From NCBI GenBank assembly GCA_010015805.1, contig ML978137.1, forward strand, positions 496,001-560,000: a stretch of 64,000 nt of DNA. Reading direction: 5' to 3'. A model generated the notes under the pieces. The model was not told the DNA's origin, ran no database searches, and saw nothing but the letters and a program-made list of their open reading frames with translations. The translations under genes and the position numbers were made by a program. This DNA comes from Rhizodiscina lignyota. Lineage: Eukaryota. Shown one piece after another: positions 1 to 61,841 of the stretch; within the stretch, counting starts at the first letter, position 1, and each line of letters begins with the position of its first letter.

Positions 1-190
1 TCTACACCGCCTCACTGTTTCCCTGGAATGGGTCTCTGTATCGAGCTAGGCTATGAAAGCCATCTATTCATCGAGTACTCGCACTTAGTTGCAGAGACTG
101 TTTCCCAGACGTCTAAGATTTTGATGGTTCAATTTCATCAAGCCCGAAGAGCATTCTCCTGTTTCCGAACTGTTCTACAGTAACGCGATC

Positions 191-3776: not shown

Positions 3777-5398
3777 CTTTCTTGCTTAGAAGACCTATGG
3801 TACTGTGAGAGTGTCAGAAGAAGATAATTTGATTAAGCGCGCGAAAATCGGTTTGGTCTTGTAGTCGCAAGTATCACAAACACTCGGGTCATCGGCCCTT
3901 CCACAAAGGGTCTGCGTACTCCATATTTGCTTACGCCTGTCGTTATTTGCAAATATCTGCGAATTTCTGGCTTACTTGGCGTCCATTTTGCGTTAATACC
4001 ACTTACGGGGCCAATCAAAAGCCCGATAGCAAAAAGATTATGTCGTCTTTCTTGACATCTTTGCAAGACTCAACTTTCTTCCTCATTCCGAATTAGCATC
4101 TCACGCATCTCACATCGGTAGAAAGATAGTCGCCACCAAGGTACGGTCAATTGGCGGACGATCTTGTTACACTTCTGAATAATTTCGGGCCAACTTAAGA
4201 AATATTGCGATTTGGAAATGCGTCCAACGATTGACATGAGATTCGCGAAGGAGATTAGGCGAAAGGGGGAAAATAGCTCGTCAGCTCGGCTGCCATTTCT
4301 GTATATTTCCGCGTTTGCATCCGCCCAACTTGACGCTTAAAGAATGTCGTCGTTGAAATGCGATGAGTAAGCGCATTATATCCGGTATGTGGCTCTGATT
4401 TTGAGTGGCTCTTCGACCAATGGCAGCGGCAGTCGCAAATACGGCCGGAATCAAAAACTCTTTGCGGATATTAGAGACAAGTCCAAAACCGTATGCTGCA
4501 AAGATACGTTGCATTGATGGTGTTCTTGCATAGAGCCTGCAATCGATCGTGATGTCCCACGTATCTGCATTTTCAGACCAGGTAGTGTCGTCTATTCGCA
4601 CGAGCCCCAAGTGGATAGAGATGTTGCCCGTATCTCAATTTGGTGCAAAAACATGTCAGGCATGATACCAGCGCTGCAAATCTATCCAGGCTGTTCACAG
4701 CAGGGAGCACAGCTCGATACCGTCGTGATTTGCTGGTGTGCAATCCGTTTTGCACAGCTGCCAGAGTTGTTCTTCTCGGTATTTTCTGATTAGCGGCCGG
4801 GAAGTACGTTAAGGGCCTGCGTCCAGAGACATTCTTGACGATTCTGTTGCTGCTCTTTTAGGATGTGAAAAAGATCCTTGACAAAATCTCTATATCAAAC
4901 AGTCAAGGACATAGCATAGACAAGAAGAAAACGGACAATGCTATCCCAAGGGCCAGGTATCATTCAGCCGATTTTAGAATCGCAATACGGAAGAGACACA
5001 GAAAGACAAAGAGCTGGTAATAGAAGGCGAGGGTGAATGTCAAGGGAATCTTGTCAACTGAGGGTCACTGAATTGGTCTTTGCAAAGCCAGGCAAAATGA
5101 GCTGTAAACGGAGTGCTACACCCTCTCTGATTGGTATAGTGATAGGCATCTCCGATAACCCGAGAATAGAGTCAGGACCAAACAAAGTACGATGGCTTGC
5201 ACTCTGAGCGATGTTGAAAAAAGGAATACATATCAGGATGTACGGAGTAATAAATGTCGTTCTGTCACCATTATTGGTATGGTGCCCCGGAATCGGGGTC
5301 CACCTCAGACAGCTGGAGCATTTGACCGCGCAAGCCACGACGCTTCAAGCTCCCAACTATCCTCTGCTGTACGATCATACCCGGGGACGTTTCTCATA

Positions 5399-6586
5399 AT
5401 GGGTCTCTTATCTGGACATTTGAACGTATTCCGCATTTTAGGCGACCTCTCCCATGTCTCGTCGAAGGTCATACTGATATGGGCTATCCACGCCAACCGG
5501 AGCGCCGAAGGTATGCTGCCTACCACTATATGATGGGACCATCTAACTTCATAGGCGTCTCCTTAATAACGCAGATATTCTACATCGCCGTCTTCCTCTC
5601 CCGATATATGGATCTCTTCTGGACGCCGGTCTTCGTCTCGAAATCCTCCCCGTATGCTGACCAGCGCTTCCTCCTCATCTACAACTTCTTCGGCAAGGTC
5701 TTCTACGTTACGACTTCAGTATATGTGGTCTTTGTAATGATGCGGGTATATGCGCGGACGAGGGAAAGAGAAAAGGCGTGGAGACTGGGATTATATTGTC
5801 TGCTTGTGTCGGCGGTATTGGCAACCCCGGTAGCCGCCATGTTCCAGAGCTTTCCCAAGGAGAATCCGTACGGGTTCAGGTTCTCACAGGTGCGTTAATT
5901 GGGTTAGATTTACAGAATTGGGGTTGCTGACTATACGTTGCGCGGTACAGATCGTTTGGACTTTCTCAATCATTCTTGAGTCCGTCTGCGTTATCCCTCA
6001 ACTCTTACTCCTCCGCCAGACTACCGTTCCAACGGTTATAGACTCCTACTATTTGCTCGCGCTTGGCTCATACCGCGGCTTCTACATCCTCAATTGGATT
6101 GTCCGGCTTGCGGGCAAGACGCACCATTTCGACCCTATCAGCGTAATTTTCGGAATCATCCAGACTGCATTATACGTCGACTTTGCATACGTCTATTACA
6201 CGCGCCAGCGCGTGAAGCTGCGGAATGGCGGCGTCGTGGATAGCGACGATCTCCGACAAGGTCTTCTCGTGCGCCGGTTCCTTGGGAAGGGCGGTCGTCA
6301 AAGTTTCGACGAAGAGGATGGTGCCGAGGCAGCTGATGAAGGCCAGGCGGAAAGTGGAAGATCGTGGGGACCGAGAGGGATATCAGTGTCAGCGGACGAC
6401 GGTGTACATGAAAATGGAAATGGAAACGGTAAGAAGAGGGAAGAGGAGCAAGGACTCACGGATCCGCAGGCATTCGAGGACGATGATTTCGACGATGACC
6501 CAGACTTGGGCCCGGAAGAGGCGGGTAATGGACATGTTCAAGGTGTTGGCAACGGATCGGAATGGAGAGACAATAATCGCAAGTGA
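5399..6586 (+). CDS. ERD2: ER lumen protein-retaining (KDEL/HDEL) receptor family protein with a long acidic tail
   Basis: Spliced product has NVFRILGDLSH...SAEG|VSLITQ...SRYMDL...WTFSIILESVCVIPQL...YRGFYILNW. Introns are 5511-5554 and 5890-5950. Probably the ERD2-related paralogue rather than canonical ERD2. Confidence 0.85.
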
Positions 6587-8001
6587 TTTTTGGAGCTACT
6601 AAAGGCGCATTGGAATAGGAATCGACTGGCTGCGGCATTACTTGGCGTTATTGAACTTGGATACCCAATTGATTTCCAAGACATTAAAATATTTCCGTTC
6701 GTCCCTTTTATGGCTTTGCTTTGGTGAAGACACATCCTCTAAGTCGCAGACTCCAGACATCCCCTTAATCTAATGGTAGCGGAACTCGCGTTAGCTACCG
6801 TGTAGGGGCTCTTTGATTCGATCGCGCGAACTTAGAAAATTCACAGATTTGACCGTTTGACATTTTGTAGCCTGCAGGGCGTTTGGTGGAGGCACGAATC
6901 ACTAAGTCGCTCAACAAGAAACTATCGAAATTTCCGGCTGCCCAAGTACTCTTTGGATAGTTCGTGGAGTCTACATGATATATCTGTGCTGGACTTGGAA
7001 ATTTCTGCCGTTCACTCAGCCTTCGACAATTGCTAGAGCGCCGGAGTGAAATAGGGGTTGCTATCTCCCGATGAGAAAAGCAGTCCCTGCTCCCGCCGGT
7101 CGAGCACACATTTAATTGTACGCGGCCTCCCCTTGATACACACGTGCTCGACTTAGAACCTTGCACAATGCCACTATCAGGTATTCTTTCCCCAGTTGCT
7201 CTTGCACTAGAGAATCGATAGAGGTCCTACAGTCAGTTTTAGGCAGAGCAGTTGCGGTACGTTAAGCATCTATGGAGCTTTGTTTGAGTGATGGAAGCAT
7301 CTTCTTTGGCAGCTACGCAATTGGAGCGTCTCTTTCAAATTGTACAGTACCATCTTCTATGCTTGTGGCAGCAGTAGCAGAGAATTCCTTCGTTGCATCT
7401 GCATATGTGGTCTTTCGTCGAGGTGATATTGTGATTACGTCCATGCTAATTAAGTAGAAATACCTTTCATAGATTTGCGATTGGTGTCGGAGATTTCGTT
7501 GGAACGGGCTCTTCTATTAGAACGCCTGCAAATTTGTGAAGCTGTCATCAGTGCTAATTGAATTGAACAACCGAGCTGTAGCTGTCAACGTGTTGATTTG
7601 TTAGAGTGGGTTTATCTAGAGCTAATACTGTAATACAATCGATATCGAGAGATTAAATGGCAGGGAAGCTAATAGAGCTCCTCTTTGCCCGTGTAAGGAC
7701 TGAACAATGGTTATGGAGTGGCTCAATCGGTGTGTTGCGTCTCATCCGCAATCCAACAGCATTTCGACGGCCACCTTCAACCGTGAGCATATACCATAGC
7801 AAAGAAACCTCGTATAGCCTCTCGCTATTAGTAAATCACCACTGGAATGAACCTTTTACGACTTAAAGGGTCGACAACATAAAATGGAAGAGGAAACGTA
7901 GGAGTTAGAGTTTGTTTTTCGTCTGATATTCGAGCTTAAATTTTGTTACTGAAGTACACTATATATTCAAAATACGGTTTCAGAGACTCTGATTTTTGCC
8001 C

Positions 8002-8167
8002 GGTGAGGTGGCCGAGTGGTTATGGCGCTAGTTTCAGGAAAACCTGGAATGGTTCCCTTGAAAAGGAAATTTACTAGTGGGTAAAACCGCGTGGGTTCGA
8101 GTAAGCTATTCCGTCCTCACTGATATCTAACAACCTTCTAACGGCACTTCAGGTCCCACCCTCATCA
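8002..8167 (+). tRNA. tRNA-Leu(CAG) with a canonical 37/38 intron (8039-8071) and a second GT-AG insertion in the T-loop (8101-8152)
   Basis: Acceptor GGTGAGG (8002-8008) pairs with CCTCATC (8160-8166), discriminator A8167. D-arm is GCC..GGC with an A-box. Anticodon stem is CTAGT/ACTAG with CAG at 8035-8037. A long variable arm spans 8078-8090. The T-arm GTGGG-TTCGA|GT-CCCAC forms only after removing 8101-8152. Mature length is 81 nt before CCA. Confidence 0.93.
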
Positions 8168-8172
8168 ATATC

Positions 8173-8178
8173 TTTTTT
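8173..8178 (+). terminator. Pol III terminator (T6) of the tRNA-Leu gene
   Basis: TTTTTT starts 6 nt after the discriminator base, and a second T-run follows at about 8189-8195. Confidence 0.75.
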
Positions 8179-8510
8179 ATTTGGCCAATTTTTTTAGGCC
8201 TCTTTCTTATTTGTCGTAATTACCCTGCGTTGAAGGCTTCATTTGTAGGTGGTTCTGCGGTGGCAGAACGGACGAGACAAAGCTACCGCCTTCCGGGTGC
8301 GGGGATTTTCATGTGAGGGAACCTCAGCCTCATCCTTCATCATCATTAGCGTATTTTCTTTTCTTTGGATGGCATTTAGCCGTAACTCTTCTTGTCGATC
8401 CTTGCAAATGTCTTGATTTCCTTACGTCCTATCTTGTCCTTCGTTTTTCCTGCGTTTGCGCCGATGTAGGCGTTCAACGGGATACTCTAGACGAAGACGA
8501 TCTCACGAGC

Positions 8511-10502
8511 ATGCCGCGCATACGACTGCCGGACGACCAACCTCCATTTTGGGCTGACAGAACGCCGTCCCGACGAAATGTGATGACTGCATTGATTCTC
8601 GTTTTACTTTGGGCGTTTGGATTTCTATGCGGTTCCTCTCGCCTTCAGTCCTGTCCTTACATCTCCTGCCGCGTATACACTTGCTCCGAACTCTCCAACA
8701 TCTGCAATTCGAGCTCAACAGATCTCGATGCGCGAATTGGACTTGCTGGCCAAATACCAGACCGGGGCGGAGTTTCTCAGGATGTTTTTGAACATCATGA
8801 CGAGGAGACTCCGTCGGACTTGCCCTTCACGGCGCTCGAAGACCTTCACTATGCCCTCGAGACTATGCAGACGCGGTACTTCGAGCTATGGCTTGGTACT
8901 TGGCCCGAATCGATCGATTGGACGGGTGCCGTGATGGGCACATACATATCGGCCGCATTGAACAGCCTTACACGAAGCTTGGGGTATTCTCTCCCAGCGA
9001 CGTCGCCCCAATCCTTCGAAGACCTTCACATAAAAGCAGTAGCGGAGAAGTGGAGGATCGAGAACGAGATAAACAGATATTTCACACATGGGATTGGATA
9101 CTATTTTGGGGAGAACGCGTTTGCGATTCGAATGCAGGCATTTGATGATATGCTATGGGTTGTACTTGGGTGGCTTGAGGCGATCAAATTTGTACAAGTA
9201 CATGCGCAGACGCATTACGACTGGGAGAATTTGGGCCAAGAGACAGAGGAAAGAGGATCAGACAGGTGGTACGGAGAACAATTTCTGCCCGCATTTGCGC
9301 ACAGAGCAAGGATATTTTACGATTTGGCGAAACACGGATGGGACACGCAATTGTGCGGCGGTGGCATGTTGTGGAATCCACATATGTTGCCGTACAAGAA
9401 TGCCATCACTAACGAGCTATATATTGCGGCATCTGCTGGGATGTATCTCTACTTTCCAGGAGACAACATCAGCTCTCCCTTCTCGGAACCACAGAAGCCC
9501 CCTCCAGGTGCTTTCGATCAAGTCGCAGTCAATCTAACCTTAGAAGAAGAAGAGGAACTATTAGTGAAGATCCTCCCATATGATCGTACATTCCTTCGCG
9601 CCGCAGTAGAAGCTTATGACTGGCTCAAGCGCAGCAACATGACCAACGATCAAGGACTCTATGTCGATGGGTTTCACATCAAAAATTACGGCGTCAACGA
9701 CACCATTGGTACCGGCGAATGCGACGAGCGCTCTGAAGAAGTCTACACCTACAACCAAGGCGTTTTGCTCTCCGGTCTCCGTGCTCTGTGGGAAGCTACA
9801 GGTAACATTTCCTACCTCACCGACGGCCATCAACTTGTCCGCAACGTCATAGCCGCCACAGGCTGGCGCCTTTACCACGAGCCACACCTTCCACCGGGTT
9901 GGGAAGGGCGGTGGAAATGGTACGGTCTCGGGCGCGCTGGTGTCCTCGAGGATTCTTGCGACGCCAGTGGCAGCTGCACCCAGGACAGCCAGACGTTCAA
10001 GGGCATCTTCTTTCACCATCTCACGCTCTTTTGCGAACCGCTGCCAGATCGCGCCAAGATGCCGGGGAAGACGTATGGTGGTAGCAAAGAGACGCGCATG
10101 CTGCATCGCCAGAGTTGTGCTGAGTATGCACCGTGGGTCGTGCGGAATGCGCGGGCGGCGATGCGCACGAGAGACGAGAGAGGAAGATTCGGTATGTGGT
10201 GGGCTGCCGATGTCGGTGCGGACGAGGGCTGGAATTGGCGAGATGTCGAGCCACTGAGTGAGCGGGTGCCGAAGGGTGTCGTGGGGGAGAGCGAGGACAC
10301 TCGACACTCGATGACACACGGCACGGGAACGACGTGGGATGGCTTCCCGCACCGAAGAGCTGATCCTTCGTTGCCAGCCGAGAATGAGAGTTCGGATCCG
10401 AATGACCGGGGACGGGGTCGAACAGTGGAAACGCAAGGGGGCGGTGTAGCCGTTCTACGAGCAATGTGGGAGCTCGTGATCATGTATCAGAAAGACTCTT
10501 GA
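8511..10502 (+). CDS. Glycoside hydrolase family 76 protein (alpha-1,6-mannanase / Dfg5-Dcw1-like), N-terminally anchored
   Basis: Motifs AFDDMLW (catalytic DD), CGGGMLW, YKNAITNELY, YTYNQG and QTFKGIF. A hydrophobic segment lies near the N-terminus. First in-frame ATG is at 8511. Confidence 0.88.
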   Translation: MPRIRLPDDQPPFWADRTPSRRNVMTALILVLLWAFGFLCGSSRLQSCPYISCRVYTCSELSNICNSSSTDLDARIGLAGQIPDRGGVSQDVFEHHDEETPSDLPFTALEDLHYALETMQTRYFELWLGTWPESIDWTGAVMGTYISAALNSLTRSLGYSLPATSPQSFEDLHIKAVAEKWRIENEINRYFTHGIGYYFGENAFAIRMQAFDDMLWVVLGWLEAIKFVQVHAQTHYDWENLGQETEERGSDRWYGEQFLPAFAHRARIFYDLAKHGWDTQLCGGGMLWNPHMLPYKNAITNELYIAASAGMYLYFPGDNISSPFSEPQKPPPGAFDQVAVNLTLEEEEELLVKILPYDRTFLRAAVEAYDWLKRSNMTNDQGLYVDGFHIKNYGVNDTIGTGECDERSEEVYTYNQGVLLSGLRALWEATGNISYLTDGHQLVRNVIAATGWRLYHEPHLPPGWEGRWKWYGLGRAGVLEDSCDASGSCTQDSQTFKGIFFHHLTLFCEPLPDRAKMPGKTYGGSKETRMLHRQSCAEYAPWVVRNARAAMRTRDERGRFGMWWAADVGADEGWNWRDVEPLSERVPKGVVGESEDTRHSMTHGTGTTWDGFPHRRADPSLPAENESSDPNDRGRGRTVETQGGGVAVLRAMWELVIMYQKDS

Positions 10503-60806: not shown

Positions 60807-61841
60807 ATGGGCTCGTCGATAGTCACTAGCTCGAGTGTTTCGCGGAAATTCAATCGCATGTTAAGAAGGCGATTCTGTAAGTTGCAAGGCACAGCTGCTC
60901 ATGGAAATCAATGCACTGAACTTTTTCAGCTTTCTTTATTCCGAGATTCCTGGGATTTCATCACTTGTTACAGCTCCTCTTGGTCGCATCGATCGTATCT
61001 GAAGGTTTGCGTTCATTACGCCGGCATTCACATTCAGATGGTGTCGTGCTTACAATAACGCAGCACTCTTACTCTCCGGATGTTCATCTTCGTCGGCATT
61101 TGGACGGAATGTCTATGTCTCATCATTCAAATACGCGCGAGGTTCGAATGATGGATCTCCATTCGGTGTCTGGGAGAATATCACTTCGCTCGTATCGTCT
61201 GCGGCTGCCACGGCACACTTTGAAGTCCGAGCGAACTATTTCAGCATCTGCGCTTCGAGTGGTGCAGAATGGACATGCGCATCCACCTTCAAGCGGCTGA
61301 GCAGGAACGTCCTCGATCCTGACGCTGATCCATTGGGTCTGGCACAAATTGCGTCTCGTTACAGAGAAGACGTACTTTTTCCTGGACTTGCGTAAGCCCC
61401 TGTGCTCTCCCAAGTCTGATTACAATCTCATCTTCAAGCAGTATTGGAAGCATCGCACTATCATTCCTTGTCATCCTTGGATTCTGCTTATTCCCCAGTT
61501 GGCATGATGAATACGACGAGTGGACCGGCTCGGAGATTGAAGTTAAACCCTTCCCGTCTCGGAGGTTGGTTGCTGCTTGTTTCATTATTACCAGTCTGAG
61601 CTGCGTCTTTGCGCTTTTATCCGCAATGTGGCAACATACCTCCGCCGCTACAGTAACCACGTTAGCTGAAGTCTCGGCTTACGGCAATGCGAAAGCTTCT
61701 GTTGGAGCAGCTGCGGCGGCGTTTGCATGGATGAGCTTCGGTTTTCTTGGAGTCGCAGCGATGGGAATCCTATTGATGATTGCGTCTATCCAAACATTGG
61801 ATAAGCTCACGGATGACGATGATTATGATGATCCCTTTTAA
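60807..61841 (+). CDS. FIG1: Fig1 family Ca2+-influx / cell-fusion membrane protein
   Basis: Spliced product (introns 60877-60929, 61005-61063, 61392-61441) reads GFHHLL...LLLSGCSS...EVRANYFSIC...FPSWHDE...EVKPFPSR...MWQHTSA. Confidence 0.85.

Follow-up and report, generated by a model that had tools for sequence, protein, structure and literature searches.

Can a nuclear transfer RNA (tRNA) gene be interrupted by an intron of the kind that the spliceosome removes? The question is raised by positions 8002 to 8167 of a stretch of 64,000 nucleotides (nt) from the fungus Rhizodiscina lignyota (Dothideomycetes, order Aulographales; contig ML978137.1 of assembly GCA_010015805.1, positions 496,001 to 560,000 of the forward strand), which we refer to as the window. 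In the accessible portions of two accounts, tRNA splicing is described as independent of the spliceosome and the three types of eukaryotic intron as unrelated to each other (PMC13149111; PMC12530127). A first-pass annotation, made from the letters of the window, assigned these positions to a tRNA-Leu(CAG) gene that carries a GT-AG intron in its T-loop in addition to an ordinary tRNA intron. We arrive at the same reading: the locus is probably a live nuclear tRNA-Leu(CAG) gene with one intron between tRNA positions 37 and 38 (37/38) and a second of 52 nt in the T-loop, apparently of U2 type, that the spliceosome would remove.

Read directly, the plus strand of the locus is a class II tRNA whose T-loop is interrupted after its fifth base. 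The first-pass annotation described a cloverleaf that is complete apart from a 52-nt insert between positions 58 and 59, and both the sequence and ARAGORN bear this description out. Once the insert is excised in silico, ARAGORN calls a tRNA-Leu(CAG) with a 33-nt intron at 37/38, which is the ordinary tRNA intron that had been predicted, and the product has exactly the T-arm (GTGGG-TTCGAGT-CCCAC) and acceptor end that were anticipated. In the ARAGORN fold the acceptor stem has 7 bp, one of them G-U, the anticodon and T stems are fully paired and the T-loop is 7 nt long; with its long variable arm, discriminator A and anticodon CAG, the product is a nuclear class II tRNA-Leu cloverleaf. The borders of the insert are ambiguous by 2 nt because GT is repeated at both of them, so that three pairs of cuts give an identical product, but only the cuts at 8101 and 8152 leave GT-AG ends.

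The insert itself begins with GTAAGC, contains CTAAC twice and ends with TTCAG, all where the first-pass annotation had placed them. These match the U2-type consensus at the 5' site (GTRNGN), the branch (CTRAY) and the 3' site (YAG), and the length of the insert falls in the range of local intron candidates. The canonical intron at 37/38 neither starts with GT nor contains the splice motif. An insert free of T4 with a T6 run downstream had also been reported; the longest T run in the insert is two, and the T6 run lies just past the gene. Oligo-T is the termination signal of RNA polymerase III (Pol III), and it is on this basis that we read the T6 run as a likely terminator.

Standard gene finders were predicted to overlook such a gene, and two of them do. 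On the raw 64-kb sequence ARAGORN detects no tRNA, whether its intron search is on or off, and Rfam gives no tRNA match there at the gathering score; at relaxed thresholds there is a single, mis-folded tRNA match of 13.3 bits at 8002-8076. The comparison of scanner output with and without the insert, which the first-pass annotation proposed, was made with ARAGORN, and Leu(CAG) is called exclusively after removal. When each of 200 motif-defined candidate introns from both strands of the window was removed, excision of 8101-8152 alone created a tRNA call. A joint splice motif, defined as a start of GT[AG][AT]G with YTRAY located 5-10 nt ahead of a terminal [ACT]AG, matches 8 of 1,023,148 window segments of the relevant lengths. 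A looser intron motif occurs 109 times on the plus strand of the window compared with 138-184 times in block shuffles and is therefore not enriched, so motif counts alone are uninformative. An exhaustive removal of single segments, judged by ARAGORN, proved too permissive: the number of removals that counted as "restoring" was 46 in the window and 1,209 in L005, a related locus described below; insert boundaries were therefore taken from the product common to uninterrupted relatives. The minimum-energy fold of the precursor is no better than that of shuffles (z = -1.19), and is neutral with respect to our interpretation.

Given that the insert was said to match the mRNA introns of the window, we screened the window for introns that bridge open reading frames (ORFs). 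The screen is noisy; its 36 candidates range in length from 38 to 118 nt, and many are 44-65 nt long and have GTAAGN or GTATGN starts and a CTRAY motif near the end. The earlier figure of mostly 44-63 nt agrees roughly with this set. The insert resembles a local mRNA intron in that both its length and its 5' site fall within the range of these candidates, and its GTAAGC start is shared with the candidate at 61392-61438. A T5 run is present in just 2 of the 36 candidates, and the longest T run in any of the inserts that we describe here is T4; since local introns so rarely carry T5, the depletion of T runs in the inserts is uninformative.

Could the insert be an artefact of assembly or sequencing, as the first-pass annotation advised checking? 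A Logan contig of 106,766 nt (word depth 154) from public run X1, the one run containing the stretch in its contigs, spans 7900-8300 in one piece with 0 differences. X1 may share reads with the source assembly; nevertheless, its contig excludes an error of a single assembler. In addition, seven analogous inserts are found in unrelated metagenome assemblies. We therefore reject an artefact, for which we see next to no chance.

The analogous inserts came from a scan for related tRNA genes, akin to the search of related genomes for GT..CTAAC..AG inserts that the first-pass annotation suggested. Metagenome contigs were scanned with an exact-match pattern of exon 1 (tRNA positions 10-38, with five D-loop positions left free), which 8011-8038 of the window fit, and 52 loci that form 35 distinct groups were obtained. 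The raw sequence is called as Leu(CAG) by ARAGORN at 40 of the 52 loci; three are cut by contig ends, one (L028) is mis-called owing to a very short intron, and one (L018) has no tRNA beyond the 5' half. Six loci, which make up five groups (L005 = L025), carry extra GT..AG inserts, seven in total and 47-67 nt in length (Table 1), and both ARAGORN and the Rfam tRNA model miss these genes. All seven inserts begin with GT[AG][AT]G and end in CAG, TAG or AAG, and in each of them the A of a YTRAY motif is found 9-14 nt ahead of the 3' end. The first insert of L042 shares the GTAAGC start of the window insert. Counting the window gene, the joint splice motif is present in eight of eight inserts; of the 21 distinct inserts in the anticodon loops of the related loci, by contrast, none has it and none even starts with GT. 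The base that precedes the insert is G in six of the eight. A blind, motif-driven removal scan of all loci recovered identical inserts and no additional ones. The window gene and those of the five groups, six in all, retain an intron of 29-35 nt at 37/38, which brings L042 and L047 to three introns each. For example, L047:401-680 (match strand) holds a 32-nt canonical intron and two GT-AG inserts, and forms a perfect cloverleaf once these are removed.

Table 1. Features of the tRNA-Leu(CAG) locus in the window and extra inserts in related tRNA-Leu(CAG) loci of metagenome contigs
Feature	Window coordinates	Strand	tRNA position	Length (nt)	Description and basis
TATA-like element TATATATT	7960-7967	+	35-42 nt upstream of position 1 (-42 to -35)		Putative promoter element
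Exon 1	8002-8038	+	1-37		Acceptor 5' strand, D-arm, anticodon stem 5' strand; ARAGORN cloverleaf after removal of 8101-8152
Acceptor 5' strand	8002-8008	+			
A-box-like TGGCCGAGTGG		+	Exon 1, D-arm		Intact
Anticodon CAG	8035-8037	+			
Canonical tRNA intron	8039-8071	+	37/38	33	ARAGORN intron call
Exon 2	8072-8100	+	38-58		Anticodon stem 3' strand, long variable arm, T-stem 5' strand GTGGG, T-loop TTCGA
T-stem 5' strand	8091-8095	+			
T-loop, first five bases	8096-8100	+			
Spliceosomal-type intron	8101-8152	+	58/59, T-loop	52	Splice signals; tRNA restored by removal
Intron 5' site GTAAGC	8101-8106	+			
Branch-like CTAAC	8127-8131 and 8138-8142	+			A8141 is 11 nt from the 3' end
Intron 3' site CAG	8150-8152	+			End TTCAG
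Exon 3	8153-8167	+	59-73		T-loop GT 8153-8154; T-stem 3' strand CCCAC 8155-8159
Acceptor 3' strand CCTCATC	8160-8166	+			
Discriminator A	8167	+			
T6 run	8173-8178	+			Likely Pol III terminator; 6 nt past the discriminator
L005 insert			43/44	67	Starts GTAAGA
L024 insert			54/55	49	Starts GTGAGT
L029 insert			7/8	56	Starts GTATGT
L042 insert 1			6/7	54	Starts GTAAGC
L042 insert 2			53/54	53	Starts GTATGT
L047 insert 1			About 47/48, just before T-stem	48	Starts GTATGT
L047 insert 2			57/58, T-loop	47	Starts GTAAGT

Since red algae carry tRNA introns at 58/59, the obvious alternative is an intron of the archaeal or red-algal type, in which a bulge-helix-bulge is cut by the tRNA endonuclease and the GT-AG ends are a coincidence. 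The accessible text of one report places validated T-loop introns of Chondrus crispus at exactly this site (bioRxiv 10.1101/2021.12.21.473619). Among our related loci, L001 bears a T-loop insert that lacks GT-AG ends and has a helix-bulge fold. However, the strict geometry has two 3-nt bulges and a 4-bp helix, with each cut placed behind the second base of a bulge. By this standard the central helix of the window insert attains 1-3 of 4 bp, with weak flanks, across its three product-preserving cuts, and no product-preserving cut of any of the inserts gives a complete central helix. A relaxed search finds nothing in seven of the eight inserts. The window insert is one of these, although 20 of 200 of its shuffles are positive, and the sole match, in the second insert of L047, is at the level of chance (95 of 200 shuffles). 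The window insert folds only weakly with its flanks (-9.5 kcal/mol), and this local fold leaves the two ends unbridged. Finally, complete splice signals in eight of eight inserts go far beyond coincidence. With both the strict and the relaxed geometry tests failing, we reject a bulge-helix-bulge intron as very improbable, and the first-pass description of a spliceosomal-type intron in an otherwise intact tRNA-Leu(CAG), with GT-AG ends, a branch motif and no such geometry, stands.

L001 is of interest in its own right. This tRNA-Leu(CAG) gene lacks an intron in its anticodon loop, and L046 is its uninterrupted relative. Its 49-nt insert (L001:460-540, match strand) could be cut after any of positions 55 to 58, and the insert and its flanks fold into a helix-bulge-helix of -22.2 kcal/mol; it may be an endonuclease-type ectopic intron of the red-algal kind.

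Does the exon sequence of the interrupted genes bear the mark of function? After removal of the inserts, every stem pair is intact in all six genes, and their acceptor stems co-vary: pair 3:70 is U-A, C-G or A-U, and pair 6:67 is G-C or C-G. L029 and L042, which are clearly related on the basis of their sequences, are the most informative pair. Between the acceptor 5' strand and position 8, both carry an acceptor-stem intron (L029:330-400 and L042:330-400, match strand), at sites no more than 1 nt apart. Of 81 exon bases two are not shared, and these are the paired positions 3 and 70 (A3:U70 in one, C3:G70 in the other); position 3 belongs to the first exon, the 6-7 nt that precede this intron. 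The two acceptor-stem introns are 66% alike, which equals the best shuffle, and the upstream flanks are 56% alike compared with a shuffle mean of 57%, a random level. The 37/38 introns are 82% alike, above every shuffle, and the canonical intron seems itself to be conserved. Apart from their splice signals, the eight inserts are mutually dissimilar and unlike the rest of the window, and since they are alike in those signals alone they are not fresh copies of one element. For the family as a whole, this pattern points to introns that have been kept and spliced over a long time rather than to fresh lesions.

These comparisons bear on the possibility that the window gene was recently killed, that is, that a transposed intron or an introner-like element entered one copy of a multi-copy Leu(CAG) family, leaving it unexpressed or unable to mature, with exons that are intact because the event is young. 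Any clean insertion, whether functional or not, would allow the tRNA to be restored exactly. The B box is divided by the insert, and L026, the closest locus to the window gene by variable arm and T-arm, has no insert, as would fit a young insertion. Nevertheless, eight inserts in six genes are accompanied by not one stem-breaking change, and L042 and L047 each carry two GT-AG inserts with exons that are still perfect. In L029 and L042 the intron and flanks have diverged to, or near, the level of shuffles, whereas 79 of 81 exon bases are kept and the differences compensate for each other. That splice signals are all the inserts have in common fits long-term splicing better than fresh dead copies, and no second copy of the window insert is present within the 64 kb. 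Taken together, we regard a recently killed gene as rather unlikely.

Several points do weigh against a live, spliced gene in the window. Because L026 lacks the insert, the window insert is young or lineage-specific, and the evidence for a long-kept intron is weaker here than for the family, with no selection seen after the insert arrived. An uninterrupted Leu(CAG) copy may be present elsewhere in the genome, in which case the window copy could be dispensable or dead. The insert splits the B box, which keeps 9 of 11 consensus bases. We know of no case beyond U6 in which the spliceosome acts on a short, uncapped Pol III transcript, and the first exons of L029 and L042 would be merely 6-7 nt plus a leader. 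That inserts occur in 5 of 35 groups is the outcome of one pattern scan and should not be taken as a genomic frequency. No convincing coding sequence by which the interrupted metagenome loci could be placed taxonomically is present in their flanks.

How might such a gene be expressed? A precursor would extend from just upstream of 8002 to the T6 run, and would probably be made by Pol III from the upstream TATA-like element, the intact A box and the B box with its 9 of 11 consensus bases. Fission-yeast U6 is a Pol III transcript that is spliced by the spliceosome. In the nucleus, the spliceosome would remove 8101-8152 as a lariat, with A8141 as the most likely branch by analogy with the 9-14-nt spacing in the other inserts. 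The T-arm and the elbow of the tRNA could form only after this step, and the folded T-arm would then permit end processing, export, cutting by the endonuclease at 37/38 and joining by tRNA ligase. The folded body of acceptor and T-arm is what the tRNA endonuclease, RNase P, RNase Z and the export receptor recognize, and because a 52-nt insert in the T-loop would block the fold that these factors read, we propose that the spliceosome acts first. CUG decoding may, as the first-pass annotation proposed, be tied to spliceosome activity.

A different way to supply the spliceosome with its substrate would be a capped, non-coding precursor made by RNA polymerase II (Pol II) from the TATA element, spliced like an mRNA and then processed by RNase P and RNase Z to free the tRNA. 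The TATA-like element 35-42 nt upstream of the window gene and a TATATAT located 36 nt upstream of the mini-exon of L029 would suit such a promoter, and a cap would account for the recognition of a first exon of 6-7 nt and of introns that split the B box. However, the T6 run directly 3' of the window gene and the T runs that are also found 3' of related loci are as expected for Pol III, and the A box is intact. In fission yeast and plants, TATA elements also serve tRNA genes that Pol III transcribes, and they therefore do not separate the two polymerases. Moreover, TATA strings are found about -25 to -40 upstream of several related loci and are absent from others, and offer weak support for an upstream start. 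We consider a Pol II precursor quite improbable, and transcription by Pol III remains our proposal.

Are there precedents for spliceosomal introns in structural RNA genes? In fungi, such introns are known in the U6, U1, U2 and U5 small nuclear RNA (snRNA) genes and ribosomal DNA (rDNA), with U6 introns occupying varied and often species-specific positions and thought to arise via reverse splicing, according to the accessible text of PMC5855946, and in U3 small nucleolar RNA genes according to that of PMC5832005. No tRNA host is among the cases given in the available portions of either source. A full-text literature search, which covers subscription journals sparsely and does not extend to supplementary tables, returned no description of a tRNA gene with a spliceosomal intron, in agreement with the first-pass annotation, which knew of no well-described case. 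What would be new is thus the class of host for a known phenomenon, together with the presence of a canonical tRNA intron in the same gene.

As far as the sources describe them, the U6 introns are alike in being short GT-AG introns with a branch motif in a small, structured RNA gene of Pol III type. U6 differs in that it is a component of the spliceosome and that its splicing has been shown experimentally in S. pombe, whereas the host in the window is a tRNA that has a second intron of another kind and is known from sequence alone. Because a tRNA is not a spliceosome component, nearness to the catalytic centre cannot account for the insertion. The introns in ascomycete rDNA, U1, U2, U5 and U3 genes are likewise, in what is described of them, normal-looking spliceosomal introns in non-coding RNA genes that were mostly recognized from sequence. 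Compared with these hosts, a tRNA is far shorter, with exons of 6-37 nt and a need for exact junctions if it is to fold.

The red algae offer the closest parallel in position. In the accessible text of bioRxiv 10.1101/2021.12.21.473619 and PMC9602550, Cyanidioschyzon merolae has introns in its D-arm, its anticodon arm and its T-arm, and Chondrus crispus has them at D-loop 20/21 and T-loop 58/59. As described there, these are nuclear tRNA genes with two or three introns that tRNAscan-SE reports as pseudogenes. However, the red-algal introns have fixed positions and follow the endonuclease pathway, whereas the eight inserts have GT-AG ends and a branch motif, occupy eight positions and lack a bulge-helix-bulge. 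The multiple-intron and split tRNA genes of archaea, as far as they are described, are similarly interrupted at many sites outside 37/38 and are detectable only when the inserts are removed, but it is the bulge-helix-bulge that defines an archaeal intron, and a spliceosome is absent from archaea.

Where could the inserts have come from? Insertion into the tRNA or its gene, by reverse splicing or by intron transposition, would be the most likely route, and it may have been repeated in fungal tRNA-Leu(CAG) genes. Introner-like elements of Dothideomycetes are a source of recent spliceosomal intron gain and belong to the same fungal class as the window host, and an introner-like origin is plausible. 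However, such elements form multi-copy families of near-identical members, and the 64 kb provide no support for this origin, as the window insert is single there and the eight inserts are mutually unlike.

We lean slightly toward a wider interpretation: in several fungal lineages, nuclear tRNA genes would have acquired spliceosomal introns repeatedly and kept them under selection, a single gene bearing as many as two beside its canonical intron, with first exons down to 6-7 nt in length. Maturation would then depend on both the spliceosome, acting on short Pol III precursors, and the endonuclease, and a class of real genes would be missing from current fungal tRNA gene catalogues. If true, a tRNA that needs both splicing machines would be a direct exception to spliceosome-independent tRNA splicing, and the short list of non-coding RNAs with spliceosomal introns would gain the most abundant class of small RNA. 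With eight insertions at eight sites of an 81-nt RNA, these genes would form a compact natural system of intron gain, and would let one observe the spliceosome at work on tiny exons and on Pol III transcripts. Some of the tRNA genes that are listed as "missing" or "pseudo" when fungi are annotated would also be accounted for.

Other observations concern loci of the scan and the neighborhood of the window gene. At L018 (match strand, from base 308), on a contig of 1,429 nt, G+C-rich sequence takes over after the exon-1 pattern and a tRNA 3' half is missing from the next 260 nt; the locus may represent a gene that was truncated, an insert of great length or a match by chance. L014, L017 and L027 are intron-less tRNA-Leu(CAG) genes closely clustered with tRNA genes for Lys, Val or Arg, and clearly come from organisms other than those of the intron-bearing, fungal-type loci. 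Just 3' of the T6 run in the window, an inverted repeat (GGCCAA..T7..TTAGGCC) at 8180-8207 gives a sub-threshold, RyhB-like Rfam match of 13.5 bits against a gathering score of 55, and is most likely merely a terminator-like hairpin.

Upstream of the tRNA gene, the plus strand of 5100-6600 contains a gene split by short introns that we take, from its translated ORFs, to belong to the ERD2/KDEL-receptor family. One of its intron candidates, at 5511-5554, is 44 nt long and has GTATGC, CTAAC and TAG. Downstream, 8511-10499 (+) is a single open frame of 663 codons for a GH76 (alpha-1,6-mannanase-like) protein, with 100% identity to an NCBI protein of Rhizodiscina lignyota. In the public model of this protein (595 amino acids), residues 14-595 match from 8754 onward at 99.7% (tBLASTn) and the first 13 residues derive from a different frame near 8620-8665; the model therefore presumes an intron that is superfluous to the long open frame.

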